From Candidatus Beckwithbacteria bacterium (GTDB lineage Bacteria > Patescibacteriota > Microgenomatia > UBA1400 > CG1-02-47-37), in assembly GCA_026397255.1 (NCBI GenBank), contig JAPLVF010000013.1, positions 85,030 through 149,029 of the forward strand: 64,000 bases of DNA. Direction: 5' to 3'. Numbering within the stretch: the stretch's first letter is position 1; each line of letters opens with the position of its first letter. This document shows, one piece after another, positions 1,555 to 56,710 of this stretch. The notes beneath the pieces are model-generated. The model saw only the letters and a program-made list of their open reading frames with translations. It made no database searches and had not been told where the DNA came from. The position numbers were made by a program, and so were the translations under genes.

Positions 1555-1782
1555 TTAGGCCCGCAAACTAATAAAAATTAATACAATCGCACCCAATAAA
1601 CTAATGGCTAAATATTCCAAGACTACCGGTAAAAATAAAGTTTTATCCCGTTTATGAATAAACATTCCCCAGAGAAAATAACTGATTCCCATAACAACAG
1701 AAACAGGCAGGCGATATTGAGGCACTTTTAAATAGATTAACCCTAAAATTATCAGCCAAGTCAACAAATTTAAATATGGCAT
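1555..1782 (-). CDS. Small hydrophobic membrane protein (75 aa), function unknown
   Basis: ORF tightly packed between neighbours with two predicted TM helices. No recognisable motif. Confidence 0.4.
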   Translation of the reverse strand: MPYLNLLTWLIILGLIYLKVPQYRLPVSVVMGISYFLWGMFIHKRDKTLFLPVVLEYLAISLLGAIVLIFISLRA

Positions 1783-1783
1783 A

Positions 1784-5600: not shown

Positions 5601-7556
5601 CCCGGAGATTAAATCGGTTGCCGAACCAATTTGGGTAAATAAGGCATTTTTGGATTGATCAGCACCGGCGTTAACTGAGGGGGCAGTTTTATCAATATTG
5701 GCACCATTAGAAGTCACCGGAGCGGTACTGCAATTGCCAGCGTTGTCACAAACATTTGGCGTGACCGAGCAAGTTTGATTGGCCCCTTCAGTGCTGATAG
5801 TGCAGGAAGCCGGATTACCGGAATTTATGCCGCTCCTTGAATCTGTGTAATTAAAATAAGATGTTTTACTTATCTTATACCAATCCCAACCAGAAAAGGT
5901 TGTTTTCGATGAAAAAACAGGGGCTGTTTTATCTAATTTAATAGTGACTGAATTAGAACTGTTACCACCTGTGCTAGTGGCCGAACAGGTAATGGTTTGA
6001 CCGGAGGTCTCAGTGTTTATGGTTTGTGTATTACAACCGGTTTGAGAAGTGATTGTGGACTCGGGATCAGTAACGCTCCATGTCACAGTTGGGTTAGAAT
6101 TATTCCAGCCGGCGGCATTTGGCGCTGGGCTGACATTGTAGGTAATTACTGGAGGAGTGGGATCGCTGTTAACAGTAAAAGTAGAGGTCCCCTTATCTGC
6201 CCAAGACCAACAAGTAAAAAGCCAAAAACTACAGTTTTGGACATTTGCGTACCAAGTTCCAAGAGCGGCGTTGCTTGGTAATGCATATGAACAAGTTACT
6301 TCTTTACTTCCCCCGCCGTTATCACAACTGGCGATAGAACTGTTGCTTGGATTTTTGATATTTAGACGCAAAAGTTCGGTCTTAGTGGAAGTTGCTTTAG
6401 CAAAAACTGTTTGTCCGCGCACGTATGAAGTTTTCGGAGTTGAGTAACTATTAGACGAATAGGTTGATACAGAATACACCGCATCTGTAAATGTTGTTTC
6501 AGCAACTATTTTATTCTCGTCTTTAACTTCAACTTTATAATTCGGCCGATAGTTGCCGTCGAGTTGGTAGGCATAAGTAAATTCGCCTAGATCGTTGGTG
6601 GTAATGGAAGTCTCGAAATTAACCGTTGGCTCATCGGTGGAAGAAATAATTAAAGCATAATCTTTATTGGGAGCAAAGGAGGTGCCGGAAATAATGACGA
6701 TTTCGGTCGGGGCATAATCGGGTTTATCGGTAGACAGTTGGGCGCTGGAAACATTGGCTGAGTCAAGATCAAAGACGGGAAGGCTAGTTTCAGAATTAAC
6801 AATCACGGCAGATAGTTGGCCGGTTTCTTCAGGTTGAGTGGAGCCTAAAACTTCCGGGCTAGGCTGAATGTCCTCCTTCGCTGAAGCTTCGGCGGACGAA
6901 GGCGGACCGGTTTCTTTAGGCGGATCAGATGGTTGAACGGACGGACTGGGAAGGGATAACGGGGCCGGACTGACTGATGGTGTTGGGCTGGGAGTAATCA
7001 CCGGCGACGGACTGACTAGCGGTTGATTAGGATTTTCCAGCCAACTATTTTCGTCTGCGGAAAGATTAAGTGATGTATCAGCGGCTTCGGATACTATTTC
7101 CAATTGCTGACTAGTAATAGTAAACCTAGTCACATTGACGACGGATGCGCCGTCAATCTGGGTTTTAAGAATACCGCGGACAACCTGGTGTTTAACGCAG
7201 TTGCCATTTTCAGAACACGTGCCGGCATAAATTTCTTTGGTAAAAGTTCCGCTGTCAACTTTATCTTGACCACTAACGGCTTCGGTTTTATCATCGACTG
7301 TCCGATAGGCTAAAAGATAGCTAACTTCTTTATCAGTATCGACGGTAAAAGAAAAAGAGTTTTTAGCTGAATCGAAAGTAATTGGAGTTGTTTTGACAAC
7401 GGTTGAAACCAAATCTTCTTCAGCATAAACAGGCTTTATTAAAACTGAAGCGATCGGCAATAATTGATTAGCCAATAAAGCCCAGGCCGAAATAACAGAA
7501 AGCAGTTTTCTGGAAAAACTTTTTTTCATTCGCCTTATTATACCCTTGCTTGTCAA
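2676..7556 (-). CDS. Giant secreted or cell-surface protein (1626 aa) with a signal peptide, a Pro/Ser-rich linker, repeated FN3/Ig-like modules and a C-terminal TM anchor with basic tail
   Basis: N-terminus MKKSFSRKLLSVISAWALLANQLLPIASVLIKPVYA is a signal peptide. A linker reads PSPVITPSPTPSVSPAPLSLPSPS. Two roughly 85-aa Cys-containing modules are duplicated internally (TAPVFSSKTTFSGWDW...CDNAGNCS and TAPALASKTTFSGWYN...CDAAGNCN). The protein is T/S/N-rich with likely beta-sandwich repeats. The C-terminus reads ...PAPEVLGVEEE...HYFGWWPWLLTLFPAWFLIRYYRRRKIK. Confidence 0.8.
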   Translation of the reverse strand: MTSKGIIRRMKKSFSRKLLSVISAWALLANQLLPIASVLIKPVYAEEDLVSTVVKTTPITFDSAKNSFSFTVDTDKEVSYLLAYRTVDDKTEAVSGQDKVDSGTFTKEIYAGTCSENGNCVKHQVVRGILKTQIDGASVVNVTRFTITSQQLEIVSEAADTSLNLSADENSWLENPNQPLVSPSPVITPSPTPSVSPAPLSLPSPSVQPSDPPKETGPPSSAEASAKEDIQPSPEVLGSTQPEETGQLSAVIVNSETSLPVFDLDSANVSSAQLSTDKPDYAPTEIVIISGTSFAPNKDYALIISSTDEPTVNFETSITTNDLGEFTYAYQLDGNYRPNYKVEVKDENKIVAETTFTDAVYSVSTYSSNSYSTPKTSYVRGQTVFAKATSTKTELLRLNIKNPSNSSIASCDNGGGSKEVTCSYALPSNAALGTWYANVQNCSFWLFTCWSWADKGTSTFTVNSDPTPPVITYNVSPAPNAAGWNNSNPTVTWSVTDPESTITSQTGCNTQTINTETSGQTITCSATSTGGNSSNSVTIKLDKTAPVFSSKTTFSGWDWYKISKTSYFNYTDSRSGINSGNPASCTISTEGANQTCSVTPNVCDNAGNCSTAPVTSNGANIDKTAPSVNAGADQSKNALFTQIGSATDLISGIASVLWTKESGPGTISFGTASLTSTTVSATVDGTYVLRLTATDNAGNSSFDEFNLVWDTTAPTITINNPNTNPALSKTITASTSEGTLEMSNTTGSVCDGTLTFVSYASQTFTSESDNGKKVCYRAVDAATNTTYLMSDAIAGIDKTGPTTPGQIGWSSENPPVGSDYASGADFNNYKTCGQSLNYLPLTNLWGPSTDANAGVAGYDREVYSPNSTTLLVSHSLSTNYVNGGGATNGNTYWTRIRAYDALGNKGTWTSLCAITYDTTAPVITVDPYNTSWTNQNITVTASTNEGILNTTSHQFTTNGSFDFVATDTAGNITTKTVTITNIDKTAPGKPTITSPTAEQYFKTIPILNQWSVSSDTGGSGIKEYQIKYTYDHHLAGRQDTIIRTVSGTSRNHTPGLNEQDGVTIWVQAIDNAGNESGWSTPVHYYYDATAPALASKTTFSGWYNTNRTSTFTYADTNGVASGNNPTCDITTQGTNQTCSITPNVCDAAGNCNTTTVTSNGADIDFTDPDSTITDPLNSGTDSTIITNSWNGSIKGAATDTLSHVNGVQISIQKDLTQYFDGTSFVVSGTEILLNTSYATGNWEYAGLTSPAQGTYTIKSHATDNAGNIEDTYTLTIILDKTIPEVALSINPLTADGSNGWYKTQPEVTLTATDTNIDKIEYQWDSQTGSWTTYSAPFKPGSEGAHILYYRAHDLADNYSEVGIKNISWDETTLDKGPQNLSVSPNPSNGNNVKVTWEAAQDNVGINHYRVTWKKDGVDEKGADVSEATFEYTITDNLSEGDWTIKVTAYDQAGFTADTSTTATVDLTGPIAPILSMVGTGTGSVSLAWNAISDATDYSVWYGTATGVYDYAAHVGNVTSYTIQGLGTGLYYVVVAAYDTVGNRGTYSNEVNTATTIAGIPGAIGPATGFLPAPEVLGVEEEATPPASGVESPGTVLGEHYFGWWPWLLTLFPAWFLIRYYRRRKIK

Positions 7557-7595: not shown

Positions 7596-8831
7596 CTATA
7601 TCTGCCAAGAAGTTTTTAGCTGAAATTGTTTGTCGCCTAAGTAGCCGTTGATTTCCGGCCGAATTATAGTTTGATTAAGCAAGGCTGCCGGATAAATCGT
7701 ATACTCGCCGTAACTTTGATTAATTAAATCAACTGTTTTTAAAATTTTATCTTGCTTTTGATCAGCAATAAATAACGGTTGAGGCAGTAAGTTCTTTTTA
7801 GTCAAAAGAGAAATCCAAACGCCGGCGAAACGAATGGGGCGGTGAATTTGCCAGCGATTATATATAGTATAAAGTTGCCGGAAAACTTCCCGACCGGAAT
7901 CAGTAAAAATTTGTCTGGTAACGTGCTTTAATTGATTAAAGTGGTCCCCACGGACAGCCAAACCAAACTGCCGGCCGACTAAGCCCATCTGCCGTAATTT
8001 CCAGACAGCTTCTTCCACTAAATTTCTGATTAAAGCTTTAATGACAGCTTGATTGGTGGTGGTGGCAAATAAAGTATAGGTGCGGGAAACAGACTTGGCT
8101 GGCTGTATCTCTTTCACTGTCACTAAAGAATGGTTGTCTTCCCCTTGACTGAAACGGGTTAATTCTTTGGCCCAAAACTGACCGAATTCGGCTTGAAGAA
8201 TCGATTGGGGCACAAGTTTAACTTGGCTTAAAGACGTAATCCCCAGGTTGTTTAATCGTTGACTCAAATGGCGACCAATGCCGCAAACGTCGGCAAATTT
8301 AGCCTCTTTTAAAACTTGGTTTTGATTCTGATCGTTAATCACAAAAAAGCCTTTTTTCTGGGCTAAGCTGGAAGCCAGTTTGGCTAAAAATTTATTTTTA
8401 GCAATGCCGATGGAAACGCCTAAACATTCCCCTAATTCTGACTGAATTTTGGTTTGGATTTTTTGAGCTAATTTGACTGAACCGCCGAAAAAGATTTGAG
8501 TATAGGTGACGTCTAAAAAAACTTCATCCAGCGAGAAAACTTCCACGACGTCGCTAAAATTATTCATCAGCTGAATAAACTGTTGGGTGACGGCGGCATA
8601 GCGAGTAAAATTGGCGGGAACTAAGATAATTTTAGGACAAAGGGTTTTAACTTCTCCTAAACTCATGCCGGTTTTAATCCCAAAGGTTTTGGCTTGGTTA
8701 GAACAGGCAATGACGCAAGTGCGGCCTAGGGCTTTTAAGATACCGACTGGTTTTCCCCGTAAAGACGGATTAAACTGTTGTTCGACTGAGGCAAAAAAAC
8801 TATTTAAGTCAACGTGGAAAATTAGCCGATC
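7596..8831 (-). CDS. dinB: DNA polymerase IV (Y-family, DinB)
   Basis: MDRLIFHVDLNSFFASVEQ...VIACSNQAKTFGIKTGM...FSLDEVFLDVT are Y-family polymerase motifs. The ORF track starts at 8912, but the internal Met at 8831 matches the conserved DinB N-terminus (hhhhvDmd.FFAsVE). The 8832-8912 stretch overlaps a terminator hairpin. Confidence 0.8.
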   Translation of the reverse strand, partial: DRLIFHVDLNSFFASVEQQFNPSLRGKPVGILKALGRTCVIACSNQAKTFGIKTGMSLGEVKTLCPKIILVPANFTRYAAVTQQFIQLMNNFSDVVEVFSLDEVFLDVTYTQIFFGGSVKLAQKIQTKIQSELGECLGVSIGIAKNKFLAKLASSLAQKKGFFVINDQNQNQVLKEAKFADVCGIGRHLSQRLNNLGITSLSQVKLVPQSILQAEFGQFWAKELTRFSQGEDNHSLVTVKEIQPAKSVSRTYTLFATTTNQAVIKALIRNLVEEAVWKLRQMGLVGRQFGLAVRGDHFNQLKHVTRQIFTDSGREVFRQLYTIYNRWQIHRPIRFAGVWISLLTKKNLLPQPLFIADQKQDKILKTVDLINQSYGEYTIYPAALLNQTIIRPEINGYLGDKQFQLKTSWQI

Positions 8832-9113: not shown

Positions 9114-9163
9114 AAATCACTCACCCCCCTTCTTTTTGCTATTATCTATTATAAATCACTATA

Positions 9164-9967
9164 TTATGAAAAGTGGATTGAACGCAAGTCAGATAAAGTC
9201 TTGGAGCTTAAACCAAGGCCGGATAATTTTTTGGCAGGAGCCTTAAGGACATCGCTGCATAACACTAAATTATTCTGAATTAAAATTTCCAGTTGGTGTT
9301 TTTCTAAAAAAGCAAAGCAAGTAACCGGATACAACTGATAGGTTTCAATTAATTGTTCCAGACTGTCTTTTGTAGGATAACGCCAAGCCAGCAATTTCAT
9401 TCCCCGACACTCACCATACTTAACGGCATTTTGAGTTAATTTGGTATTAGTGACCAACCACACTCCATGATAATCATTAACCGCGGTCACATCTTCAAAA
9501 CGGCCTTCGGTATAAAGGACATCTTTAGAATGGGATTTGGTGCCGGGCCGGTTATGAAATTTACACTCGATTAAAAATTTAAGATTATCTTTTTCGGCCA
9601 CCACATCAATTTCATGATCAATACAGCGGCCTTTAACGATCACTTGAGTTTGGGTGTGGAAACCCAGAGAGTTTAAAAGCCGGGCAACAAATTTTTCAAA
9701 CGGATAGCCGGACGGGCCTAAGGCCATCAAGGCTTCTTTTAAAGTGTAACGATAGCTATCACCGAATTGATATTGATTTAAAAGCGCAAAAACTTTGGTA
9801 TAAATTTCTTTGGTGGTAATGCCGTCGTAAAGCTGACCGATTAAGTTCACTAATATTTTATCGATAATGGCGGCTTTAACGCCGGCGCGCTGTAAAGACT
9901 GACGAACTTTACTTTCTAAAAAAACTTCTTTTTCTCCGGAAGCTTTAATAATATTAATGGCGGACAT
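9164..9967 (-). CDS. ATP-cone domain fused to an Mrr-like (PD-(D/E)xK) restriction-endonuclease domain
   Basis: The N-terminus MSAINIIKASGEKEVFLESKVRQSLQRAGVKAAIIDKILVNLI has an ATP-cone pattern like NrdR and RNR N-termini. The central region FEKFVARLLNSLGFHTQTQVIVKGRCIDHEIDVVAEKDNLKFLIECKF is a Mrr_cat-like D...E.K core. The start is moved to the internal Met (9967) because the upstream extension overlaps the divergent glycosyltransferase gene. Confidence 0.6.
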   Translation of the reverse strand: MSAINIIKASGEKEVFLESKVRQSLQRAGVKAAIIDKILVNLIGQLYDGITTKEIYTKVFALLNQYQFGDSYRYTLKEALMALGPSGYPFEKFVARLLNSLGFHTQTQVIVKGRCIDHEIDVVAEKDNLKFLIECKFHNRPGTKSHSKDVLYTEGRFEDVTAVNDYHGVWLVTNTKLTQNAVKYGECRGMKLLAWRYPTKDSLEQLIETYQLYPVTCFAFLEKHQLEILIQNNLVLCSDVLKAPAKKLSGLGLSSKTLSDLRSIHFS

Positions 9968-10797: not shown

Positions 10798-11508
10798 ATG
10801 AGAAGATTATTAAAATTCATTGCTCCAAAAAGTTTTAACGATGGTCTCTCAAAATGTAATAATCTAGGAAAAAATCTAATAATAAAAAACAAAGTAAATA
10901 GATTTTTAGATCTTGGTTGTGCTGACGGTGAATTTACCCTAAAGTTCGCAAAAGTTTTACGGCCAGAAGAAATATATGGCGTAGAGATTGTTGATAAATA
11001 TTGCAATGAGGCTAAAAGGAAAGGAGTAAAGTGTGTAAAATTTGACTTAAATTCTAAATGGAAATTTGATAATAATTATTTTGATTTTATTTTATCCAGC
11101 CAAAACATTGAACATTTGCATAACACTAGACTTTACATGGAAGAATGCTATCGGTGCTTAAAAAAAGGAGGGCAATTATTAATACTAACTGAAAATTTAG
11201 CATCTTGGATTAATATTTGGTCGTTAATTTTTGGCTGGCAACCATTTTCAACAACTTTAATTAATGGTTGGAGTATTGGCAATCCATGTATTTGGCATTC
11301 TCAAAAACCTTCTAATAATACTGGCAAAACTAGCCACGTAAGAGTATTAGCCTTTAAGGGCTTAAAAGATATAATGCAACATATTGGTTTGAAAGATGTT
11401 CAAGTTTACTCCAGGGGTTATCTTCCATTCTGGGGAAAGCTATCAGATATTCTTTGTAGAGTTGATAAAAAACATGGACATTTTTTAATCGGAACAGGAA
11501 TAAAGTAA
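10798..11508 (+). CDS. Class I SAM-dependent methyltransferase, AT-rich and immediately downstream of tRNA-Glu
   Basis: FLDLGCADGEFT (motif I) ...CLKKGGQLLI (motif post-II/III). The codon usage is visibly more AT-rich than the flanks. Confidence 0.7.
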   Translation: MRRLLKFIAPKSFNDGLSKCNNLGKNLIIKNKVNRFLDLGCADGEFTLKFAKVLRPEEIYGVEIVDKYCNEAKRKGVKCVKFDLNSKWKFDNNYFDFILSSQNIEHLHNTRLYMEECYRCLKKGGQLLILTENLASWINIWSLIFGWQPFSTTLINGWSIGNPCIWHSQKPSNNTGKTSHVRVLAFKGLKDIMQHIGLKDVQVYSRGYLPFWGKLSDILCRVDKKHGHFLIGTGIK

Positions 11509-11599
11509 TATTATTCCTGATATATCCTTTTAAAATACTCTACCGAGGAGTTAGATATTCGCCCCTCCGGGCCACAAAATTATATTTATTAAATGTGTA

Positions 11600-11627
11600 T
11601 TGATTTTGGATTTCATAAGTATATAAT
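11600..11627 (+). promoter_or_regulatory. Putative sigma70-type promoter for greA
   Basis: TTGATT at 11600-11605, a 16-nt spacer, then TATAAT at 11622-11627, about 65 nt upstream of the greA start. Confidence 0.35.
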
Positions 11628-11692
11628 TCACCTTTGTAACTTCAGTTTGCCCGGTGAGGTAAAACTTTAATAATCTCCTGAAACAGGGTGAA

Positions 11693-12172
11693 GTGAAGTT
11701 TTCTTTTTTTATGCCGCAACAGGATTTTTATTTAACACCCGAAGGCTTAAAAGAGCTCAAAGAAGAGCTCAAGGTTTTAGTGGAAGAAAAAAAGCCGGCC
11801 CTACTGGAAAGAGTGGCGACCGCCAGGTCCCATGGTGATTTATCAGAAAACAGCGAATATGCTGCGGCCAGAGAAGATTTGGCGTTTGTGGAAGGCAGAA
11901 TTGAAGAAATTGAAACTTTGGTCGTTAAAGCCAAAATAATTAAAAGTAAAAAAACTGACGAAGTTAAATTGGGCAGTCTGGTGACAGTGAAAACCAATGG
12001 ATCAACTCAGACTTTTGAGCTGGTGGGCGAATGGGAAGCCGACCCATTGAAGCAGAAAATTTCCCACACTTCGCCTTTAGGCCAAGCGCTTTTAGGCAAG
12101 AAAAAAGGCGATAAAGTGGAAATTAAAGCCCCGGCCGGAAAAGTTATTTACCAAATTCACAAAATCGAATAA
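11693..12172 (+). CDS. greA: Transcription elongation factor GreA
   Basis: LTPEGLKELKEELKVL...ARSHGDLSENSEYAAA...SPLGQALLGKKKGDKVEI are GreA N-terminal coiled-coil and C-terminal FKBP-like motifs. 11693 is a GTG start; ATG at 11711 is an alternative. Confidence 0.8.
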   Translation: MKFSFFMPQQDFYLTPEGLKELKEELKVLVEEKKPALLERVATARSHGDLSENSEYAAAREDLAFVEGRIEEIETLVVKAKIIKSKKTDEVKLGSLVTVKTNGSTQTFELVGEWEADPLKQKISHTSPLGQALLGKKKGDKVEIKAPAGKVIYQIHKIE

Positions 12173-48070: not shown

Positions 48071-48141
48071 TGCCGGATGGTGAAATGGCATCACAGGCGG
48101 CTCTGAACCGCCTATTCCAAGTCCGAATCTTGGTCCGGCAA
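48071..48141 (+). tRNA. tRNA-Gln (anticodon CUG), with U1-A72 and an unusual T-loop TCCGAAT
   Basis: Hand-folded cloverleaf. The acceptor is TGCCGGA/TCCGGCA (7 bp, perfect). U8 is present. The D stem is GTGA/TCAC with loop AATGGCA. The anticodon stem is GGCGG/CCGCC with loop CTCTGAA (U33, CTG, A37). The variable region is TATT. The T stem is CCAAG/CTTGG. The discriminator is A. Confidence 0.65.
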
Positions 48142-48281
48142 CACTACTGGACGGAAAGCGACCGTAAGCTCTTAAATAGGTTGATGGCACTTGCTAAACC
48201 TCTACTTTGTTTTTAGGAGTTTCGGACCGTCCCCCTTATTGTTCAGGGTCCTAAATATTTTTCTTCAGACAATTTTTGAAC

Positions 48282-49391
48282 TTAATTATTCTTTTTTCGT
48301 CTTATGAAGAAAATGTAGCCTGCTGCAAGAAGCGTGATTCCTATTCCAAAAAAGATTATATTTTTGCGACTACGACTTCCTTGGGAAACTGGGGAAATTG
48401 TGGGCGCTGGAGAAGAAGTTGCTTCTTTACCCAGCACTTCTCCCGCGGCTGAAACTGTTTCACCAAGCACTCCTGGAGCAAAACCTTCCGGAACCTCATT
48501 TATTACTTGACCATAAACATCGGTTGATAGCTCATTGGAAAAATCGCCTGGCATACAATTATTACCGGCCCTAACTTTGAAAAAATATTTAATTCCTGAC
48601 GACAGTCCTTTTACTGTATAGGATGTTGTATTATTTCCACCAACATTTGGATTTCCATAAAGCATTTCTCCGGATTTAGTTCCAAATGCAATTAAGTAAT
48701 AAGTTACCGGGTCCTTTGCTTTCGACCAGATTAAGGTAACTTCATTTGATCCACCTTGAATTATGGAAACAAGAGAAGGAGCGCTTCCAGGTTTTTCATC
48801 AGAACATACAGAAGAAGTAGAAGTTGTTGTTGTTCCCACTACTTCCCCTCCGCTACTTGTGTTATTTTCAGTCGCAAAACTTTTTTCATCACCAACTACC
48901 TCTGGTGAACCATGTGAAATTACACGGTAATAATAGGTAGTTTCTGCGGTGAGCCCACTGATTGTCACAGAATGTGAAGTAACTTTTGGAGAATTATCTG
49001 CTTCTATTGTAGAGTTAGCATAGCCATAGTTTGGAGCAATATCCAATACAGCGTGAGAAACAGTATCGTAAATCACTCTACTGGTACTTTGATGGTCAGT
49101 AGTCCAAACTATTGTTATGCTCGTTTCACTTGGTGCGTTAGTGGTTTCCTGTGAGATTGTGGGAGGTGGATTAACAGTAATGCTAATAGTGGCCGTATTG
49201 CTGTCAATCGTCCCGTCATTAGCTTTAAAGGTAAAAGAGTCTGTACCAGTGTAGCTGGCGGTTGGAGTGTAATCCACCTGGCTATCAGTCAAATTGCTTA
49301 AAATGCCATGGGAAACTCCGGAAACAATTGAGATCCAAAAAATAATTGATAAATTATACCTTAAAAAAAGGTAAGCAATGGTAAAAATCAC
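48282..49391 (-). CDS. Secreted FN3-like surface protein (369 aa) with a C-terminal TM anchor and basic tail
   Basis: A signal peptide, beta-rich T/S-rich repeats (ETTYYYRV is FN3-like) and C-terminal ...GEVLGKEATSSPAPTISPVSQGSRSRKNIIFFGIGITLLAAGYIFFIRRKKNN. Confidence 0.65.
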   Translation of the reverse strand: MIFTIAYLFLRYNLSIIFWISIVSGVSHGILSNLTDSQVDYTPTASYTGTDSFTFKANDGTIDSNTATISITVNPPPTISQETTNAPSETSITIVWTTDHQSTSRVIYDTVSHAVLDIAPNYGYANSTIEADNSPKVTSHSVTISGLTAETTYYYRVISHGSPEVVGDEKSFATENNTSSGGEVVGTTTTSTSSVCSDEKPGSAPSLVSIIQGGSNEVTLIWSKAKDPVTYYLIAFGTKSGEMLYGNPNVGGNNTTSYTVKGLSSGIKYFFKVRAGNNCMPGDFSNELSTDVYGQVINEVPEGFAPGVLGETVSAAGEVLGKEATSSPAPTISPVSQGSRSRKNIIFFGIGITLLAAGYIFFIRRKKNN

Positions 49392-49522
49392 TGACCCCTT
49401 TATTGATAAAATGGCTCCCTCTATCCAAAAAAAGGCGAAAGAAATTTTAGTTTATTGTAAAAATGATATTGTCAGAATTAAAAGAGAAAGGCCTAGAAGA
49501 AAAAAGCCAATAAATATTAAAA

Positions 49523-49909
49523 ATGACCATTAAAAAAGAGTCAGCCGAAGAATTTATCAAAAGAAAAGGAAACCTTTTTAAAAAACATAACACTATTCAA
49601 GTTAAAGATATTGGTAGGACTGGGGTTCATTATTTTATCCGTGAAGCTTGGACGTTTTTAGCACAGAGTAATCTTAAGGAAAAAGTGTTTGTTATCGAAC
49701 GATTAAGAAAAGAGTCGACTATAGGCAAACTGGCTTATGATAACTGGAAAAAAGGAGACATTGAATACAGAATCGGTTACTACATCGTAGGTAGAGTTGG
49801 TCGCGCCAAAGGGAAGTGGATTTGGGGGCAGTTTTGTCCAATGATTCCTCAAAACGATTTAGGTAAATTATTGGACAAAGCTCGGAAAGAAAGAACAATT
49901 ATTTACTAA
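49523..49909 (+). CDS. Hypothetical basic protein (128 aa), first gene of the island operon
   Basis: ORF with intergenic gaps of 16, 5 and 21 nt to the next three genes. No motif recognised. Confidence 0.5.
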   Translation: MTIKKESAEEFIKRKGNLFKKHNTIQVKDIGRTGVHYFIREAWTFLAQSNLKEKVFVIERLRKESTIGKLAYDNWKKGDIEYRIGYYIVGRVGRAKGKWIWGQFCPMIPQNDLGKLLDKARKERTIIY

Positions 49910-49925
49910 TTTGAACTAGGATTAT

Positions 49926-50525
49926 ATGCCTTTATCTGACAAAGCTATTCAAGAATATAAGGATATTTTTAAGAAAAAGTATGGTAAGGATTTATCTGAT
50001 GCTGAAGCCAAAGAACAAGGAGAAAACCTATTAGGATTTTTTGAGCTTTTGTTTAAAATGGCCGAAAAGGAATATTTAAGGAAACAGAGACTTAAAAGAG
50101 AAAAAATTAAGGGATTTTTCCTTGATGCCGATGAAGGAGCTTATTCTTGCGGGATTTGTGGAGAAAATTACCCCGGAAATAATATTTGGTGGAACCCAAA
50201 AGGATTAAAATGCCGAGATTGTTGGAGAAATATTAAAAATAGAGTAATCCCCGATTTGAAATATAAACATGATCATAATGAAGTTTGGATTCAAGATTGG
50301 CAAATAAAATACGACTATGGCGTTCACCCATCAACAGCAAGAAAACTTAGTCGAGAAGGATTGCTTCATGGGAGAGATTTAAAAAGAGAAAACGGAATGA
50401 CTTACTGTACGATTTATTTGGTGAAAGAAAATAAAGGGTTTTTAAAGAAATATCCGAAGAAGCCGGCAATTAAAGTTAAATTTGTTAATCCCGAGATTAA
50501 TAAAACAATGCAACAAAAAACATAA
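49926..50525 (+). CDS. Hypothetical protein with a C4-type zinc ribbon (199 aa)
   Basis: SCGICGEN...(13 aa)...CRDCW gives two CxxC pairs after an N-terminal helical region. Confidence 0.5.
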   Translation: MPLSDKAIQEYKDIFKKKYGKDLSDAEAKEQGENLLGFFELLFKMAEKEYLRKQRLKREKIKGFFLDADEGAYSCGICGENYPGNNIWWNPKGLKCRDCWRNIKNRVIPDLKYKHDHNEVWIQDWQIKYDYGVHPSTARKLSREGLLHGRDLKRENGMTYCTIYLVKENKGFLKKYPKKPAIKVKFVNPEINKTMQQKT

Positions 50526-50530
50526 GTTCT

Positions 50531-51367
50531 ATGCATTTTAATAAACGCCAGGAAGAATTAATTTCAGAGTATAAAAAACTTTTACTTTTTGGTTATCAAA
50601 AAATAAGCACAATCGGTCTAAATATTAAAAAAACTAGAGTAAGGAAAAGAGTTCTATATTTCATGATGGGTGCGATGCAAAATTTTTCTGAAAGTATATT
50701 GAAATTATTAGGTTCAATACCAATTTATGAAAGACCTGGAGAATCTCTATTAAGATCTCAGTTTGAATTATTGCTAAACGTAAGGTTTATTTATTCGGGC
50801 AGAACAGAAGAAAATGCAAGATTATTTCTTTCGGATTTATTACTAGAATCTATTAGCTTTGCAAAAAAACATCATAGGCTATGGGACAAATATCCCAAAT
50901 GGGATCTAACTTTCGGATCAATAAAAAAACCGTGTGATTGGGACAAATTTATCTTGGGAAGTTTATATGATCTACAAAAATATAGAGAAAGGCACGGTGA
51001 TAATAATGTTAATAAGCTACCCAGCTTATACGATAGAACTTTACAAATAGATAAATATCTTAAAAAGATAGGTACATTCTCCGAAAACAACAGCGCTGAG
51101 AAATATTATATTTACTATTATCAATTTTTTTCTCAAGCAACTCATTTAAATATGTCAGGGTTGCAAAGATATTTGAGAAGTAAAAAAGATATTTTAAAGG
51201 AACCCTTTTTTGATATTGATTCAAAACCTGAAGATGCTGAAAGAATATTGGCAGTTAGCTATCAAGCCTATTTTGTAATGCTTCGTCATTTTTTACAGGT
51301 ATTTAATAGTTTTGATAGCCATGAATTAAAGTTTTTTAACAAATATTCAAAAAAAATAGCAAAATAA
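50531..51367 (+). CDS. Hypothetical all-alpha protein (278 aa)
   Basis: ORF in the operon. No motif recognised. Confidence 0.5.
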   Translation: MHFNKRQEELISEYKKLLLFGYQKISTIGLNIKKTRVRKRVLYFMMGAMQNFSESILKLLGSIPIYERPGESLLRSQFELLLNVRFIYSGRTEENARLFLSDLLLESISFAKKHHRLWDKYPKWDLTFGSIKKPCDWDKFILGSLYDLQKYRERHGDNNVNKLPSLYDRTLQIDKYLKKIGTFSENNSAEKYYIYYYQFFSQATHLNMSGLQRYLRSKKDILKEPFFDIDSKPEDAERILAVSYQAYFVMLRHFLQVFNSFDSHELKFFNKYSKKIAK

Positions 51368-51388
51368 AGAATTATCTTTAAAAAAATT

Positions 51389-52645
51389 ATGGGTCCAACG
51401 ATAATATTTGATAAATCGTTCCTTCAAAGTATAAGCGTTGATGAATCCGTATTTCTTCAACAGTTTTTTATAACCAACGTAACCCCACTTTTTTATGTAG
51501 AGACTCTAGGAGACCTTGATTTAGGAAAACACAAAAGCGGGAAACCAATCACAGAAATTATTAGTGCACTAGCAATAAAAGTACCATCAACTAGTGTTGC
51601 GCCAAATATTCATCATAGAAGATTAATTATGGGTAATTTAATAGGCATGGACGTTGAAATGGATGGCAGAATTATTCGTGAAGGTGGTATCGAGAAAGTT
51701 GATCCTGACGGAAACGTTGGTATTCACTACTCTGAATCTCAAGAGGAAATGGCCTTAAATAGATGGCATAAAAGAGAATATTTTGCTGTTGAAAAATTAT
51801 TTTCTAAATCATGGAGAAATATGTTATCAAATCTAACCTTTGATCACATATTAGGAATCATTAAAAATCTTCTACCTAATAATGAAAAGTTATCAAATTA
51901 TTCACAAGTAAAAAAATTCGTAGATAAATTTATCACAAAAACAAAGATCGAGCTTTTACTTTATCTCGTTATTGAATTTTCAGGGATTAACCAAAATTAT
52001 TATCATAAAGCATTACAAAGATGGCGTAGAGAATCTATTTCGGATTTTGAGAAATTTGCCCCTTATGCAGCATATGTTTTAAAAATCGACTTGTTTTTCT
52101 ACATTTGCATGTTTCTTGGCTTGGAGTCGAAAAATCGTCCAAGCCATAAAATCGATCTAGCCTATTTATATTATTTACCTTTTTGTAATGTTTTCGTATC
52201 AAGCGATAAACTACATAAAAGAATTGTTAATTTTTTTTTGAGAAAAGATCAAATTTTTGTAGATGGCCCAGACTTTAAAAGAGGCTTAAGTAAATTAAAT
52301 GAATACTACTTGCATTATTTAGATCAAATTAATAAAGAAGGATTTATGAGATTTGCCCCTCAGCCTCCAAAAGATTTAGACAATACCGTTTCTAAAATAT
52401 GGGACAAAATATTTCCTAATTGGAGAGGAACAAAGCTAGATAAAATAAAAGAGAGAAATCCGGAAGAAGAAAAAATATTATTAGAAAAGTTAAAAAGAAT
52501 TCAGAAAGAATCAATTGTAGTTGATAGAAAAACACCTATGGATGACATTCATCACATTATCGAAACACATAAAGTTCTGGTTCAAAAAGGAAAATGGAGA
52601 ATTCTTCCCGAGGGAATAGAAAATAAAAAGTCACAAAATAAATAA
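51389..52645 (+). CDS. Hypothetical protein (418 aa), possibly with PIN-like features at the N-terminus
   Basis: N-terminal TIIFDKSFLQS...YVETLGDL and later NVFVSSDK segments loosely resemble the PIN acidic-residue pattern. Very tentative. Confidence 0.45.
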   Translation: MGPTIIFDKSFLQSISVDESVFLQQFFITNVTPLFYVETLGDLDLGKHKSGKPITEIISALAIKVPSTSVAPNIHHRRLIMGNLIGMDVEMDGRIIREGGIEKVDPDGNVGIHYSESQEEMALNRWHKREYFAVEKLFSKSWRNMLSNLTFDHILGIIKNLLPNNEKLSNYSQVKKFVDKFITKTKIELLLYLVIEFSGINQNYYHKALQRWRRESISDFEKFAPYAAYVLKIDLFFYICMFLGLESKNRPSHKIDLAYLYYLPFCNVFVSSDKLHKRIVNFFLRKDQIFVDGPDFKRGLSKLNEYYLHYLDQINKEGFMRFAPQPPKDLDNTVSKIWDKIFPNWRGTKLDKIKERNPEEEKILLEKLKRIQKESIVVDRKTPMDDIHHIIETHKVLVQKGKWRILPEGIENKKSQNK

Positions 52646-52755
52646 TATATCAAACTATATCAGCAATATTAAAGACGTCCCTTTTTATACTGTCTCATTT
52701 GTCTCATTTAGTCTGGGGATGATACACTATGGGAGTTTAGTTATAGCGACTTAAT

Positions 52756-52781
52756 GGTCCCAGACCGGACCGCTCAACTAA
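52756..52781 (+). promoter_or_regulatory. Conserved hairpin motif copy 1: GGTCCCAGACCGGACCGCTCAACTAA
   Basis: Stem GGTCC/GGACC. The motif ends 32 nt before the ATG at 52814. Confidence 0.5.
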
Positions 52782-52813
52782 TACGAGCAAAATTAATAAA
52801 AAAACAAAATTAT

Positions 52814-53626
52814 ATGGGTAATACATTAATTACTTACAAACAAAAATTAAATCTTAATAATGGATTTGTTATTAATATTAATGAATTTAAACGTATTTAT
52901 AGGGCTGTAGAGGAAACAATCAAAAATACCTCGGAATACAAAAAAGATATCAGTATCTACTCAAGCATAGAAGGTGAAACAAGTGCCGGAGATATAAAAG
53001 GACAATCTTTTGAAGATTTTCTAAATGAAATTATAACTCGACAGCTTGAGCTACAGTCTGTCAGAATATATCTGAGTTATAGTACTTATTCAAAAGAAAA
53101 TCCCTATTCCTATACAATCGACATGTATTTAGGAAGAGCTTTTGGTAACCAGATAAATCTGAGTGGATCAGACGAAAAATGGGTTTTAGATTCAAAAGAC
53201 AAACTTGAATTCACTTTTAGCAAGGTATCTCTATACCCCAAAGCTAAAAAGCCATTACCAACTAGATTAGTTGACTTTATATTTAATGGTAAGTTGGTAG
53301 TTACGGCGTGGATAATGGTGATTTTCTCTCTTTTGTTTTCGAAATTTTTCCCAAACATTTATTATGCCTGGATAAGTTCGTTTATTATCGCATATGCGTT
53401 AATGGGTGTAGCTACATTGGCGCTTATTAACCAAGGAGACAAAACTCCAATCGCAAAATTCATGTTTGTAAATAAAGAAAAGCAGGCTACCAAAAAGTCA
53501 ATTGTTGATTATGCTGTGAAGCAGCCGAGAATAATTCAAATAATCCTTTTCATTTTTGCTTTGGTAGGTTTTATTTCTGCGATATTTACAATAATAGACA
53601 TTGCTAAAAGATATAACTGGATATAG
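52814..53626 (+). CDS. Hypothetical protein with an N-terminal soluble domain and two C-terminal TM helices (270 aa)
   Basis: The start is set at MGNTLITYK because the upstream in-frame extension is the conserved nucleotide motif. The C-terminus has hydrophobic helices VVTAWIMVIFSLLF... and IIQIILFIFALVGFISAIF. Confidence 0.5.
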   Translation: MGNTLITYKQKLNLNNGFVININEFKRIYRAVEETIKNTSEYKKDISIYSSIEGETSAGDIKGQSFEDFLNEIITRQLELQSVRIYLSYSTYSKENPYSYTIDMYLGRAFGNQINLSGSDEKWVLDSKDKLEFTFSKVSLYPKAKKPLPTRLVDFIFNGKLVVTAWIMVIFSLLFSKFFPNIYYAWISSFIIAYALMGVATLALINQGDKTPIAKFMFVNKEKQATKKSIVDYAVKQPRIIQIILFIFALVGFISAIFTIIDIAKRYNWI

Positions 53627-53653
53627 TTATTTAGTTATTTATAAGGATAGAAT

Positions 53654-53679
53654 GGTCCGAGATCGGGCCACTCAACTAA
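53654..53679 (+). promoter_or_regulatory. Conserved hairpin motif copy 2: GGTCCGAGATCGGGCCACTCAACTAA
   Basis: Extended stem GGTCCGA/TCGGGCC with one G-T position. It ends 2 nt before the ATG at 53682. Confidence 0.5.
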
Positions 53680-53681
53680 AT

Positions 53682-54362
53682 ATGAAATTAAAAGTGGGAT
53701 ACTACAATGAAGAATACAATCTAAAAGAATTCTATGAATTGAAGAAGAAGAATTTTTGGATTGTAATTGTTGTTTTATTATTAACCTTTTTAATAGTTAC
53801 TTTTAAACTACTCCCAAATAATTTTACGGCGGTTTTAATTTCCTTTGTTGCTGTCGGTGTAATATCTGATTTATTGATAAATATGATTGTGGGTAATATT
53901 TGGAGCCGTAAGTCTTTAAGAGATGTTGATGGCGTTCAAAAATATCTATCTCCATTAGAACAGGTGTCTTGGTTACCCAGAATAATTGGTATTTTTGAAC
54001 GAATAATCTTTACGGCTAGTTTTATTATGCAAAAACCTGAATTCATTGGTATTTGGTTAGGTTTGAAAGTTATTGGAAGCTGGAAAGACAATTCTCCTGA
54101 AAATCTGGAGAAAGAAAGAAAGAAAAAAGAAAAAGGGGAAAAAGTAATTAAACTCTGGCGCATAAGAGAGAATATTTTTCTTATAGGGACAGCTTTATCA
54201 CTTTTTTCGAGTTTTTTCGCATCCTACATATATTCACAAATAATTCATTTAACCAATTCTTTCGATAATAAATCTATCCATCTTCAGAAAAAAATTATGT
54301 ATTTACAACATAATTATTATCATTTTCCAGCGTACGATAATTTTTCAAAATCAGAAAAATAA
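53682..54362 (+). CDS. Hypothetical polytopic membrane protein (227 aa)
   Basis: The start is set at MKLKVGYY. About 4 TM helices and a KE-rich loop (EKERKKKEKGEK). Confidence 0.5.
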   Translation: MKLKVGYYNEEYNLKEFYELKKKNFWIVIVVLLLTFLIVTFKLLPNNFTAVLISFVAVGVISDLLINMIVGNIWSRKSLRDVDGVQKYLSPLEQVSWLPRIIGIFERIIFTASFIMQKPEFIGIWLGLKVIGSWKDNSPENLEKERKKKEKGEKVIKLWRIRENIFLIGTALSLFSSFFASYIYSQIIHLTNSFDNKSIHLQKKIMYLQHNYYHFPAYDNFSKSEK

Positions 54363-54428
54363 ATTAGTCATAGACCAACTAGTTAAGTAAATTTGAGACA
54401 AATACGGAGATTGTCTTTAAATTTGAAT

Positions 54429-55025
54429 ATGCAACAATATATATGGGGAACATGCCAAACGAAAAAATATTCAATATTAGAAGTAAGCCAATCACAAAAT
54501 CAAATAGTTATAAGGCCAATTGGAACAAAAACACATTTAACTTTACACAAGCTCGATGTTAAAAAGGAAACTGATCAGTACTGGATAGTTAAATATCAAA
54601 ATTCTCCACTTAAGTTATATAAAAATTCGTATGCGCCTATATCATTTAGTTGGAATAGTTCAGCAATTAGAGGAGTCTGGTCAGATTTAATAGTAGATGT
54701 GGCAAGGAAAAGTGGATTTTTAAATCCGGAAAAACACGCCACCTCTTCTCAAGGTTTATTAGTTAAATGTGTAAACACAATGGGTTACGATATCGGTACA
54801 ACTAGAATAGAATTGAATCATAGCTCTATCAAGGCAAAATATCTTAAACAGGCTGATAAGATCGCTGAATTAGATCTAAAAAATACTAAATTTATGGTTA
54901 GGATAATTCTTTCAACTCCAGATAATGAATATAAAAACAAGTCAGATTGTTCATTTGAAACTAATTTAGGTAAATTATTTATTGTTAATGAAGAGGTACC
55001 AGTTATCAGGATAAAACGGTCCTAG
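54429..55025 (+). CDS. Hypothetical soluble protein (about 198 aa)
   Basis: The ATG at 54429 (MQQYIWG...) is preferred over the TTG start at 54393. The stop codon TAG lies inside motif copy 3. Confidence 0.45.
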   Translation: MQQYIWGTCQTKKYSILEVSQSQNQIVIRPIGTKTHLTLHKLDVKKETDQYWIVKYQNSPLKLYKNSYAPISFSWNSSAIRGVWSDLIVDVARKSGFLNPEKHATSSQGLLVKCVNTMGYDIGTTRIELNHSSIKAKYLKQADKIAELDLKNTKFMVRIILSTPDNEYKNKSDCSFETNLGKLFIVNEEVPVIRIKRS

Positions 55026-55043
55026 ACCGAACCGCTCAATAAA
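55018..55043 (+). promoter_or_regulatory. Conserved hairpin motif copy 3: GGTCCTAGACCGAACCGCTCAATAAA
   Basis: The most diverged copy. It contains the stop codon of the upstream gene and ends 39 nt before the ATG at 55083. Confidence 0.45.
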
Positions 55044-55082
55044 TAGGTACTTAATACACCTAAAATTTGATATTATAAAAAT

Positions 55083-55979
55083 ATGAATATAAATATAAGT
55101 ATAAATACAAATAAAAATCAACTTTCCCTGACCCCATTGGAAATTGCATCTAACAAACTTTTTGCAGTTTTGCTGGCCTTGTCCACTCTCATGTATTTTT
55201 TAAATATATTTACTCTCCCGACAATCATTATCTATATAGTGTTTGTCTTTTTCCTCTGGTTCGGTAAAAAATATCGCCTGTTTGCCAACATTATTTTTTT
55301 AATTTTCGCTATAGGTGTTTATTTTATCCCAATTACGCCCATTGGCTGGGGGCTTTTCCGCATGCTAAAAGAACTTCGACTTGGCGATGTTGATTTTAAT
55401 TTTGCCTTAATTTTTTACCTTGCCGCACTTATTTTTATTTCTTTTTCGGTTAGAAATGTTTTAGGCAATATTTTCGCTTACTTTAAAACCAGCACCGCGT
55501 CGCGTAATGTTTATTATTTTATTTCTCTAGTTATTGTTTTGGCAACACTCTTAGCTTATCCGTTTTTGGATAGCGTAAAGTTACGCGATCAATCTTTTCC
55601 AGCACAAGGAACCGGAGATCTGAGTACAATTGTCATACGACAAACACTTACTTTTATAGATCGTTATCATAAAGAGGACGGTTTCACTTCGAGGTTTGAT
55701 TCTTCCACTAAAAAATATGTTTACCGTTTGCGATTACTTGAGCCATTAAATAAAGACCTTCAATTTACAAAAGTTGAAACTGACGGCGAAAAAATTAATT
55801 TTACAACTGATAACCGGGTAAAATGTTTGAATTGTCAAAAGGATATGGGCAATCCCTACGGCTTAGTTTTCCCGGCTGGCAAAGACATTGATTTCATCAT
55901 CTCCAGTGACCAGTTGATTAGGACAATAAATTTCACTGAGCAGGAAAATAAGCTGGCTGAATTTGTTTTTTGGAAATAA
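55083..55979 (+). CDS. Hypothetical membrane protein with about 4 N-terminal TM helices and a soluble C-terminal domain (298 aa)
   Basis: Hydrophobic segments FAVLLALSTLMYFL, IIIYIVFVFFLWF, IIFLIFAIGVYFI and ALIFYLAALIFISF. Confidence 0.5.
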   Translation: MNINISINTNKNQLSLTPLEIASNKLFAVLLALSTLMYFLNIFTLPTIIIYIVFVFFLWFGKKYRLFANIIFLIFAIGVYFIPITPIGWGLFRMLKELRLGDVDFNFALIFYLAALIFISFSVRNVLGNIFAYFKTSTASRNVYYFISLVIVLATLLAYPFLDSVKLRDQSFPAQGTGDLSTIVIRQTLTFIDRYHKEDGFTSRFDSSTKKYVYRLRLLEPLNKDLQFTKVETDGEKINFTTDNRVKCLNCQKDMGNPYGLVFPAGKDIDFIISSDQLIRTINFTEQENKLAEFVFWK

Positions 55980-56024
55980 TTTCGGAGGATAAAGTTTGCA
56001 AACTACACTTATAATGATATTAAG

Positions 56025-56049
56025 GGTCCAGACCGGACCGCTCAACTAA
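56025..56049 (+). promoter_or_regulatory. Conserved hairpin motif copy 4: GGTCCAGACCGGACCGCTCAACTAA (one nt shorter)
   Basis: It ends 1 nt before the ATG at 56051. An in-frame TAA within the motif rules it out as coding extension. Confidence 0.5.
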
Positions 56050-56050
56050 G

Positions 56051-56710
56051 ATGAAATTTTTTAGATATTTGCTGGCGTTTTTAACTATCTTAATTTTTAT
56101 TTTGGCCATTTATTTTGGGTTTTTTAAGACGAAAAATAAAGAACACACGATTCTTTCACCGATCGCAGAAGTAACTACCCAAAAAACTTCAAATTTCTCA
56201 CTAGAAAAAGCACCAACGGAATCACTTAAAGGAAAAATTGTGACTATGACAGGAGAAATTAGCTGGCAGTCAAGAACGGCAACTGAGGCAGCCAGAATTT
56301 TTTCGCCCAGCGAAATTCAACAAGGAGAGAAATTAATTACCGGAGAAAAAAGCAATTTAGCTTTGGTTTTTACAGAGGCCTGTTCGGTAACACTTTCGGA
56401 GAAAACAGAAATGGAGATTGTGCAAACTCTTCCGGCCAATATAGTTTTTTCCCAAACTAACGGGACTGGCGAATATGTTAAAACAGGTGGTTATCCTGTG
56501 ACTATCAGGGTGATGAACCTTTTGGCAGAAGAGGATGGTGATATGATCGTCTCTATTGATCCAAAAAAACCGATTATTAGCTTGACTCTAAGGTCAGGAA
56601 AAGCGACGGCGGCCTTTAATGATTTAAATTATGTCAGTCATGAAATGACAGTGGTTGCCGGACAAACTTTTATTTTCAATTATGATACGCGGAAAGGGGT
56701 TCTAAAATAG
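56051..56710 (+). CDS. Hypothetical signal-anchored secreted protein (219 aa)
   Basis: MKFFRYLLAFLTILIFILAIYFGFF is a signal anchor. The 3' end overlaps the convergent GH18 gene by about 35 nt. Confidence 0.5.
   Translation: MKFFRYLLAFLTILIFILAIYFGFFKTKNKEHTILSPIAEVTTQKTSNFSLEKAPTESLKGKIVTMTGEISWQSRTATEAARIFSPSEIQQGEKLITGEKSNLALVFTEACSVTLSEKTEMEIVQTLPANIVFSQTNGTGEYVKTGGYPVTIRVMNLLAEEDGDMIVSIDPKKPIISLTLRSGKATAAFNDLNYVSHEMTVVAGQTFIFNYDTRKGVLK

Follow-up and report, generated by a model that had tools for sequence, protein, structure and literature searches.

A direct repeat of ~45 nt, here called M, occurs four times within an AT-rich island of a Candidatus Beckwithbacteria metagenome-assembled genome (Microgenomates, candidate phyla radiation, CPR), in the 64-kb stretch of contig JAPLVF010000013.1 that was analysed as a whole and is referred to as the window. 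The first copy forms the 3′ part of a longer composite element, and the following copies each close a module of one or two orphan genes. Our favoured, though tentative, reading is that M is the junction site of a cassette-type array resembling an integron or the promoter-early stem-loop (PeSL) cassettes of phages, with a head platform followed by units that consist of an open reading frame (ORF) and its M. Copies were scored with a sequence-only covariance model in cmsearch (R1) and with a second model (R2), and aligned as A10. The array and its parts are arranged as follows.

52681–52782, + strand: composite element containing M copy 1, ~100 nt
52681–52691, + strand: T-rich tract and −10-like hexamer TATACT (52686–52691), the head of the composite element and a putative promoter
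52692–52709, + strand: U block, two tandem direct repeats GTCTCATTT GTCTCATTT, the sole occurrence in the window (0.1 expected)
52720–52726, + strand: TGATACA, inverted partner of the TGTCTCA repeat, with a partner in every composite copy
52739–52782, + strand: M copy 1, the 3′ part of the composite element, preceding gene 1 (R1 43.9 bits, E 1e-12; R2 39.6 bits)
52814–53626, + strand: cassette gene 1, 270 aa, C-terminal transmembrane helices, an orphan with two homologues
53636–53681, + strand: M copy 2, 10 nt past the gene 1 stop and ending at the gene 2 ATG (R1 42.4 bits, E 3e-12)
53682–55025, + strand: second module, gene 2 (53682–54362, 226 aa) and gene 3 (54429–55025, 198 aa), from the ORF list, with no significant M between them
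55000–55045, + strand: M copy 3, whose first 26 nt are also the end of gene 3 with its TAG (R1 43.4 bits, E 1.4e-12)
55083–55979, + strand: cassette gene 4, 298 aa, an orphan membrane protein, from the ORF list
56006–56050, + strand: M copy 4, the right edge of the island, ending 1 nt before the core gene ATG (R1 41.8 bits)
56051–56710, + strand: conserved Microgenomates core gene, 219 aa, outside the island (35 homologues)

With R1 the four copies score 42–44 bits (E ~1e-12), and nothing else in the 64-kb window is significant. They lie within 3.3 kb, in the same direct orientation and inside the island. The pattern GGTCCNAGACCGGACCGCTCAACTAA matches at 52756, 53654, 55018 and 56024 with 0–3 mismatches, and 100 dinucleotide-preserving shuffles gave zero matches, so that 0 are expected by chance. 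A first-pass annotation made from the sequence had already placed plus-strand copies at 52756–52781, 53654–53679, 55018–55043 and 56025–56049, ahead of genes that start at 52814, 53682, 55083 and 56051 and whose products are unrelated to one another. We recovered all of this, with copy 4 at 56024/5–56049, including the TTTAGTTAT that copies 1 and 2 have upstream in common, the TAG of the preceding ORF inside copy 3, and copy 4, which is one base short and ends 1 nt before an ATG. The unit described there as 26 nt long had to be extended: alignment and repeat finding give a conserved unit of ~45 nt, and copy 1 sits within the composite element at 52681–52782. The consensus of M is AGTTAT(A)RGGAY-N4-6-GGTYCYAGACC-N6-GCTCA(A/G)C(TAA), and similarity between the copies stops abruptly 3′ of GCTCA(A/G)C(TAA). 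Its core measures 10+8+9 nt, in which the inner 4–6 bp are palindromic and the outer arms unlike, and there are two small dyads, GGA..TCC (spacer ~8 nt) and GGTC..GACC. A degenerate fifth copy that had been proposed at 54371–54390 reached only 3.1 bits (E 7.9) when the whole window was searched and 1.1 bits (E 5.8) when the search was confined to 10 kb, and we have dropped it, together with a copy of our own suspicion near 49483–49515 that was not significant.

The four window copies are mutually diverged by 21–28%, and copy 3 has 82% identity to a copy in another locus (L116_d) compared to 72–74% to its window neighbours; M copies within a genome are not homogenised. L034, an independent Logan assembly, has an identical sequence throughout copy 4, and an assembly artefact is thereby excluded as the source of the copies. 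Searches for alternative assemblies of the array yielded none. The clustering of four copies within 3.3 kb might by itself suggest a functionless recent local duplication, a chance resemblance or an error of assembly. We regard this as very improbable, given the chance expectation of 0 copies, the agreement with L034, the divergence of the copies and the family members in other organisms that had no part in model training. With these results two of the circumstances that the first-pass annotation had named as fatal to its motif, an assembly artefact and a local duplication without homologues elsewhere, no longer apply. At the junctions of copies 1 and 2 the 5′ start of M is partly reiterated, as ACTATGGGAG then TTTAGTTATAGCGAC at 52730–52745 and as TAGTTATT TAGTTATT TATAAGG at 53624–53645, and these reiterations may be traces left by exchange close to the 5′ border of M.

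The behaviour of gene 1 in other organisms bears directly on the role of M. A search of 5.8 billion proteins yielded only two relatives, P0037 (79% identity) and P0038 (54%), each of 270–271 aa and with the same Met start as gene 1 (MGNTL/MSKAL). In the window, gene 1 follows the composite element and is itself followed by M. At the locus of the 79% relative (L111, Gottesmanbacteria-like), gene 1 stands alone, with a DEAD helicase gene on one side and a convergent YkuD gene on the other; a diverged composite element precedes it and M follows. The locus of the 54% relative (L116) consists of three co-directional genes, A, 1 and C, with an M in each of the two spaces between them. The neighbours of gene 1 are unrelated across the three loci, and a leader of ~30–40 nt between M and the gene 1 ATG is kept with the gene. 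M thus stands on both sides of gene 1 in three contexts, and the gene 1 orthologues are accompanied by M and by nothing else. The downstream M of L111 faces the convergent gene and hence does not serve there as a promoter or leader. The first-pass annotation had listed several roles for its motif and chosen none; a cassette boundary or recombination site fits best among them, since gene 1 orthologues in two organisms are again flanked by M in unrelated neighbourhoods. In an attempted empty-site comparison, DEAD-helicase relatives of L111 had neighbourhoods that were not syntenic and were without M. L111 also encodes a large serine recombinase (4533–6059) ~4 kb upstream of the gene 1 cassette, and two EngB-like GTPase genes (7811–8404 and 11440–12018) lie on either side of the cassette region.

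Copies outside the training set were found at loci of core-gene homologues, namely L039 (three), L046 (two), L066 (two), L097 and L089, with E-values of 1e-5 to 1e-3 under the first model and 1e-9 to 1e-2 under the second. This gives ~20 M copies in ~0.6 Mb of related DNA. Nine are M-only copies: window copies 2–4, L111_d, L116_u, L116_d, two in L066, and L089. All nine begin 0–30 nt past the stop codon of a co-directional ORF or overlap it, and none is found between divergent genes. Where another gene follows an M-only copy, its start codon is 1–172 nt away; L111_d and L089 have no co-directional gene downstream. Genome-wide scans, which used the strict window-type pattern only, gave 5 matches in viral contigs and 28 in species-representative genomes, all of them single, in high-GC coding regions and attributable to chance. 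The TATGGGA-subtype pattern gave nothing in viral contigs, and blastn of the element against GenBank phages returned nothing relevant. A search of viral contigs for the 18-mer of the U block gave 22 loci, mostly unrelated tandem repeats. The phage-like contig L135 (IMGVR_UViG_3300020195_001307) carries a full composite element, including an M called by the model, before a NUDIX gene. This contig is concatemeric, its repeating 9117-bp unit (bases 1–300 equal 9118–9417, and the ORF order repeats) carrying terminase-like, ParB-methylase, methylase, ribonucleotide reductase, PfkB and NUDIX genes and one composite element in a divergent intergenic region. Rfam 15 cmscan of 47.5–57.5 kb at E<=5 yielded only a tRNA-Gln and two chance matches elsewhere, and the string GTCTCATTTGTCTCA was not found in a literature search; the family of M and composite elements appears to be undescribed, being absent from Rfam and from the literature searched.

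Nine composite copies are known to us: the one in the window (52681–52782), L111_u, L039a, L039b, L046a, L046b, L097, L134 and L135. Some stand at the heads of arrays and some in divergent intergenic regions, others are solitary and face a convergent gene, and about four of the nine face the 3′ end of a convergent gene. The U-block 18-mer or a near variant lies 40–80 nt 5′ of M on the same strand in L039a, L039b, L046a, L046b, L097 and L135. Directly 5′ of the GTCTCATTT repeats is CTTTTTATA(C/G)T in the window, L046a, L046b, L134 and L135, so that the −10-like box reads TATACT or TATAGT. An inverted partner (TGAGACA, TGATACA or TGAGCCA) follows after a variable loop of 13–45 nt in every composite copy; the 5′ arm of this inverted repeat is invariant. 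In L134 the GTCTCATTT repeats are followed by a diverged M-like core, GGTACCAGAC..GGCCAGCCA, which the models do not call. The composites at L046 17672–17795 and L134 430–579 (minus strand) are both located immediately beyond the 3′ terminus of a convergent gene for a macB/ftsX-type ABC permease, and this shared position suggests a preferred or inherited location. Terminator-like hairpins occur 3′ of the element in L122, L039a and L046b. At L122 1290–1425 (minus strand), a unit of ~115 nt downstream of GTCTCATTT repeats ends in a canonical intrinsic terminator, AGACCTGG-TTCCTAGA-CCAGGTCT with the T-rich tail TTCTTTTTTT, whose loop resembles the M core; the unit looks like a small RNA gene.

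A possible protein partner of the direct repeats is encoded in the island itself. The 199-aa product of 49926–50525 belongs to a Zn-ribbon family (CxxC...CxxC) with weak matches to HTH_17, MerR and excisionase-type domains, and homologues are present in the viral contigs L134 and L122, which had been fetched solely for containing GTCTCATTTGTCTCATTT. In both contigs the homologue is 0.2–0.6 kb from GTCTCATTT repeats. That of L134 (912–1634, minus strand) lies 0.55 kb upstream of the composite element, which adjoins a host-like macB gene at the border and so has the same position as L046a. In L122, the operon of the homologue (1590–2126, plus strand) is preceded by the GTCTCATTT repeats and an inverted third copy in an operator-like arrangement. 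The family has 333 representatives, many of which form the C-terminus of proteins of ~540 aa, and the N-terminal 370 aa of these fusions gave no Pfam match.

These observations raise the question whether M and the GTCTCATTT block are the operator or promoter of a regulon, each gene being switched by a mobile-element regulator, for example the Zn-ribbon protein with its helix–turn–helix (HTH)-like features, or by an alternative sigma factor. The sequence conservation without covariation, the dyads GGA..TCC and GGTC..GACC, the placement of the motif upstream of four successive window genes and the direct and inverted repeats just 5′ of the L122 operon, which recall autoregulation, would all fit. 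In a sigma-70 consensus scan, however, there was no site at any M copy or composite head, and the TAT(A)RNN box is without its conserved final T in most copies. Four composites point into convergent genes, and no GTCTCATTT-like site was found upstream of the island's own four-gene block. Because the start-codon spacing is variable (1–172 nt) and some copies (L111_d, L089) have no downstream co-directional gene, a pure operator or promoter is less likely, and we consider this explanation rather improbable. The same spacing and the same copies also weaken the translational operator that the first-pass annotation had listed, and the phage-type promoter it mentioned finds no sigma-70-type match at the motif. 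That annotation had further pointed to the missing Shine–Dalgarno (SD) sequence at the four genes. Only 4 of the 46 window genes have an SD-like sequence (GGAG/GAGG/AGGA at −22 to −4) ahead of them, so the absence of such sequences at these four is uninformative; the organism appears to start translation largely without them, which is a further point against a translational operator.

We then considered the level at which M is conserved. The in-frame reading MVPDRTAQL in copy 1 was rejected as coding sequence, since the homologues of gene 1 start 20 codons downstream (MGNTL...) and the frame is broken in copies 3 and 4, in agreement with the earlier view that conservation is at the nucleotide and not at the protein level. 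The compensatory change of both hairpin arms, on which the same annotation had based a conserved hairpin, was not borne out. Three candidate helices (GGA..TCC, GGTC..GACC and a 10-pair extended hairpin) pair in 72–87% of cells, but this is not above shuffles of the 3′ columns, of which 458/500, 85/500 and 424/500 do as well, and RNAalifold on 17 copies gave no consensus structure. The minimum-free-energy structure varies between copies. Fold z-scores for ten sequences were between +0.1 and −1.4 in seven, the strongest being −2.9 (copy 2) and −2.3 (L046b); three folded M-only copies (z −0.8 to −2.9) are predicted to form small, differing hairpins of −6 to −13 kcal/mol without a T-run, and a terminator scan found none on the plus strand. 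The conservation is of sequence, not of pairing, and M shows neither a coding nor a covariation signal. A tRNA-like or T-loop reading (GG-UUCNAGA-CC...CCA) was also discarded: the T-stem is not kept across copies, Rfam was negative, and ARAGORN found no tRNA or tmRNA at the composite element.

A transcribed role for M is nevertheless the chief rival of the cassette reading. The composite element could be a promoter with a small RNA (sRNA) or 5′ leader, and the M-only copies intercistronic or 3′-untranslated counterparts that act as a processing site, an mRNA stabiliser or a protein-binding site, in the manner of repetitive extragenic palindromes (REP) and bacterial interspersed mosaic elements (BIME) or of intercistronic stem-loops; the link to mobile genes would then be secondary. 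We hold this to be possible, if somewhat unlikely. All array copies are co-oriented with their genes, and the M-only copies lie in transcribed spacers right after ORFs. A 9–10-bp imperfect hairpin, GUU.AU.RGGAY-loop-RUCCY.A.GAC, can form in 79% of cells compared to 53–55% in slid controls, and it is rich in U.G pairs that are workable on the sense strand only. The composites carry a −10-like box, about four of nine are directed at the 3′ end of a convergent gene, in the manner of stand-alone sRNA genes, and the elements of L122, L039a and L046b are followed by terminator-like hairpins. Yet pairing does not exceed column shuffles, no RNAalifold consensus emerges, the individual folds differ with seven of ten z-scores at +0.1 to −1.4, and there is no Rfam family. 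By itself, an RNA element also leaves unexplained why M stands on both sides of gene 1 in three neighbourhoods that are unrelated and why, within 64 kb, M is restricted to an AT-rich array of orphan genes.

We return to the reading of M as a cassette junction. A head with a putative promoter, followed by orphan low-GC genes bracketed by M, is the architecture of a cassette array. In the mechanism that we propose, the composite element at 52681–52782 would be the head of the array and would be followed by modules of one or two orphan genes, each closed by its own M (gene 1 + M, genes 2–3 + M, gene 4 + M), with the whole AT-rich block placed directly before the start codon of the core gene. M would be the site where modules are joined, excised and exchanged, either by a hypothetical site-specific recombinase acting in trans, as in integrons, with the composite corresponding in role to attI and Pc and M to attC, or by recombination between the repeats themselves, as in PeSL cassettes. 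The GTCTCATTT repeats may serve as accessory protein-binding sites, possibly for the Zn-ribbon/HTH protein of the island. A sequence that is conserved without covariation is as expected of a DNA site recognised by a protein, and this conservation, together with the small dyads and the accessory direct repeats, would suggest such a site. A more far-reaching version is that the Microgenomates and their phages possess a hitherto unnoticed gene-capture system analogous to integrons and unrelated to them, in which a composite platform made up of a promoter-like box, GTCTCATTT arm-type repeats and a core accepts single-gene cassettes with a 45-bp M by means of a hypothetical recombining enzyme and a Zn-ribbon/excisionase-like helper (49926–50525); this we regard as doubtful.

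Several observations weigh against a cassette junction. No excised, empty or polymorphic state of the array was seen. A Pfam scan of 30 window ORFs, including all island genes, detected no recombinase, integrase or transposase, so the search for such genes near the motif that had been recommended beforehand came back empty for these ORFs. No protein family is common to the M-adjacent genes across loci. Copy 4 and L046a have 1-nt indels in the palindromic centre of M, which a recombinase core with a fixed spacer would tolerate poorly, and M lacks an attC signature. The sense-strand T.G pairs and the strict co-orientation with genes also fit a role at the RNA level, and solitary composites resemble small transcription units; the one in L122 has a canonical terminator. 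Finally, the sample on which the family rests is small.

Among known systems, the PeSL cassettes of T4-type phages have been proposed and shown to mediate insertion and deletion of modules via mini-circles; their defining features are a strong sigma-70 promoter, an SD sequence and a terminator stem-loop rich in G/C (PMC2839356, PMC4122927). Like M, PeSLs are conserved intergenic motifs of ~50–100 bp that fill the space from an upstream stop to a downstream ATG and flank orphan ORFs in hyperplastic, AT-rich regions, and the same ORFan may be bracketed while neighbours and module content vary between relatives, as for gene 1 in the window, L111 and L116. M differs in showing no sigma-70 promoter or SD sequence and no evident G/C-rich stem-loop, and in its setting, a CPR chromosome and one phage-like contig instead of T4-like phages; recombination at M is a proposal.

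The comparison with integrons leads to a similar result. Clusters of integron attC sites without an integrase are known as CALINs (PMC4889954). As in these, the genes of our array are co-oriented, mostly orphan and promoterless-looking, each is followed by a repeat of the size of a recombination site, and no integrase lies nearby. In architecture alone, four M copies in 3.3 kb with no integrase among the ORFs scanned correspond to a CALIN array. The attI site of integrons has the direct repeats DR1 and DR2 and the Pc promoter. The composite element is likewise a distinct head with two direct repeats and a putative promoter, and integron sites too are more alike in sequence within a lineage. 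However, M has 45 bp compared to 57–141 bp for attC, and it runs GTT...AAC on either strand, whereas attC runs from R″ (RYYYAAC) to R′ (GTTRRRY). A search for R″/R′ at 49–57 kb on both strands gave 2 sites per strand, with 2.1 expected, and none at M junctions. In addition, attC is an imperfect palindrome conserved in structure, with R and L boxes, extrahelical bases and little sequence conservation, in contrast to the sequence-conserved M, which contains no long imperfect palindrome with extrahelical bases, and no Pfam match to IntI or Phage_integrase was found beside copy 1 or elsewhere among the 30 ORFs. As M fails the defining sequence features of both PeSLs and integrons, it may be said to work like them but not to be one of them.

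REP and BIME elements, including REPINs, are short, sequence-conserved, imperfectly palindromic and extragenic like M, may form composite mosaics, and are typically transcribed and located at the 3′ ends of ORFs or between convergent genes. They differ from M in their abundance, with hundreds of copies dispersed among core operons, in their frequent arrangement as inverted pairs and in their association with a RAYT transposase. M has 0–4 copies per 20 kb (four in the 64-kb window) in direct orientation within arrays, and no RAYT/IS200-like gene was found among the window ORFs scanned. Tandem islands at tRNA or tmRNA sites resemble the array, since repeated integration into the 3′ end of a small gene leaves a complete longer element on one side and a partial 3′ copy behind every inserted unit, but here ARAGORN and Rfam detect no known RNA in the composite and the units are only 0.9–1.4 kb and without an integrase. 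Duplication of a tRNA attachment site was rejected as the origin of M, which is unlike the 3′ end of the tRNA-Gln gene (48071–48142), and no integrase was found in the island. The M core has the size of a dif/Xer site, as in Xer-dependent modules (IMEX, pdif); pdif sites are inverted, however, and in our case there is no GC-skew terminus and there are several M copies per genome.

The genomes of CPR bacteria are tiny, and how they acquire accessory genes is little understood. If M is a recombination junction, it would provide a simple, searchable marker of mobile single-gene modules in CPR bacteria and phages, and would point to a cognate machinery other than the integron integrase. If it is an RNA element, it would be an undescribed intercistronic or leader motif in organisms largely without SD sequences. 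In either case, the family of M and composite elements can now be modelled with alignment A10 and model R2.

The remaining features of the region around the array are listed below.

48071–48142, + strand: tRNA-Gln(CTG), from ARAGORN and Rfam, with synteny in L036 and L143
49523–52645, + strand: AT-rich four-gene block 5′ of copy 1, encoding 128, 199, 278 and 418 aa
49926–50525, + strand: Zn-ribbon/HTH-like protein, 199 aa, with homologues in L134 and L122 and weak HTH hits
50531–51367, + strand: DUF5677 protein (Pfam)

The GC content is 28–35% at ~49.4–56.05 kb and ~41% elsewhere in the window, which agrees with the AT-rich setting first described. In the closest relatives, L036 and L143, the tRNA-Gln CTG lies 50–130 nt 5′ of the core gene, and in L035 three tRNAs are directly 5′ of it. 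Since relatives have the tRNA-Gln right next to the core gene on its 5′ side, its position gives the ancestral left flank of the insertion. In the window, the two are separated by an fn3 gene (minus strand, normal GC) and the AT-rich block. The island, missing from the relatives in which tRNA-Gln directly precedes the core gene, is thus an insertion that ends on the right with the 3′ end of M copy 4. Beside the core gene in related loci we found no M, either in model searches of 69 metagenome loci plus L035, L036, L039 and L143 or in a mismatch scan that covered L037, L038, L040 and L041; an M-like stretch 3′ of the tRNA-Gln in the closest relative L143 was not significant. The GC-skew profile shows no terminus at the island.

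The island genes gave little in database searches: Pfam, PADLOC, PHROGs and NCBIfam returned only DUF5677 and a weak DUF7809 match, with no family matches for genes 2, 3 and 4, and no viral relatives of genes 1 and 4 were found in viral contigs. The island gene products are mutually unrelated. The AlphaFold model of the 418-aa protein had a pLDDT of 36 and was unusable. The interval from the tRNA to the core gene (48282–56050) looks like an insertion hot spot. In relatives, the core gene is paired with a convergent GH18 gene, and the 3′ ends of the two genes overlap by ~35 nt (56676–56710), an arrangement that is kept in the distant relatives L036, L039 and L143.

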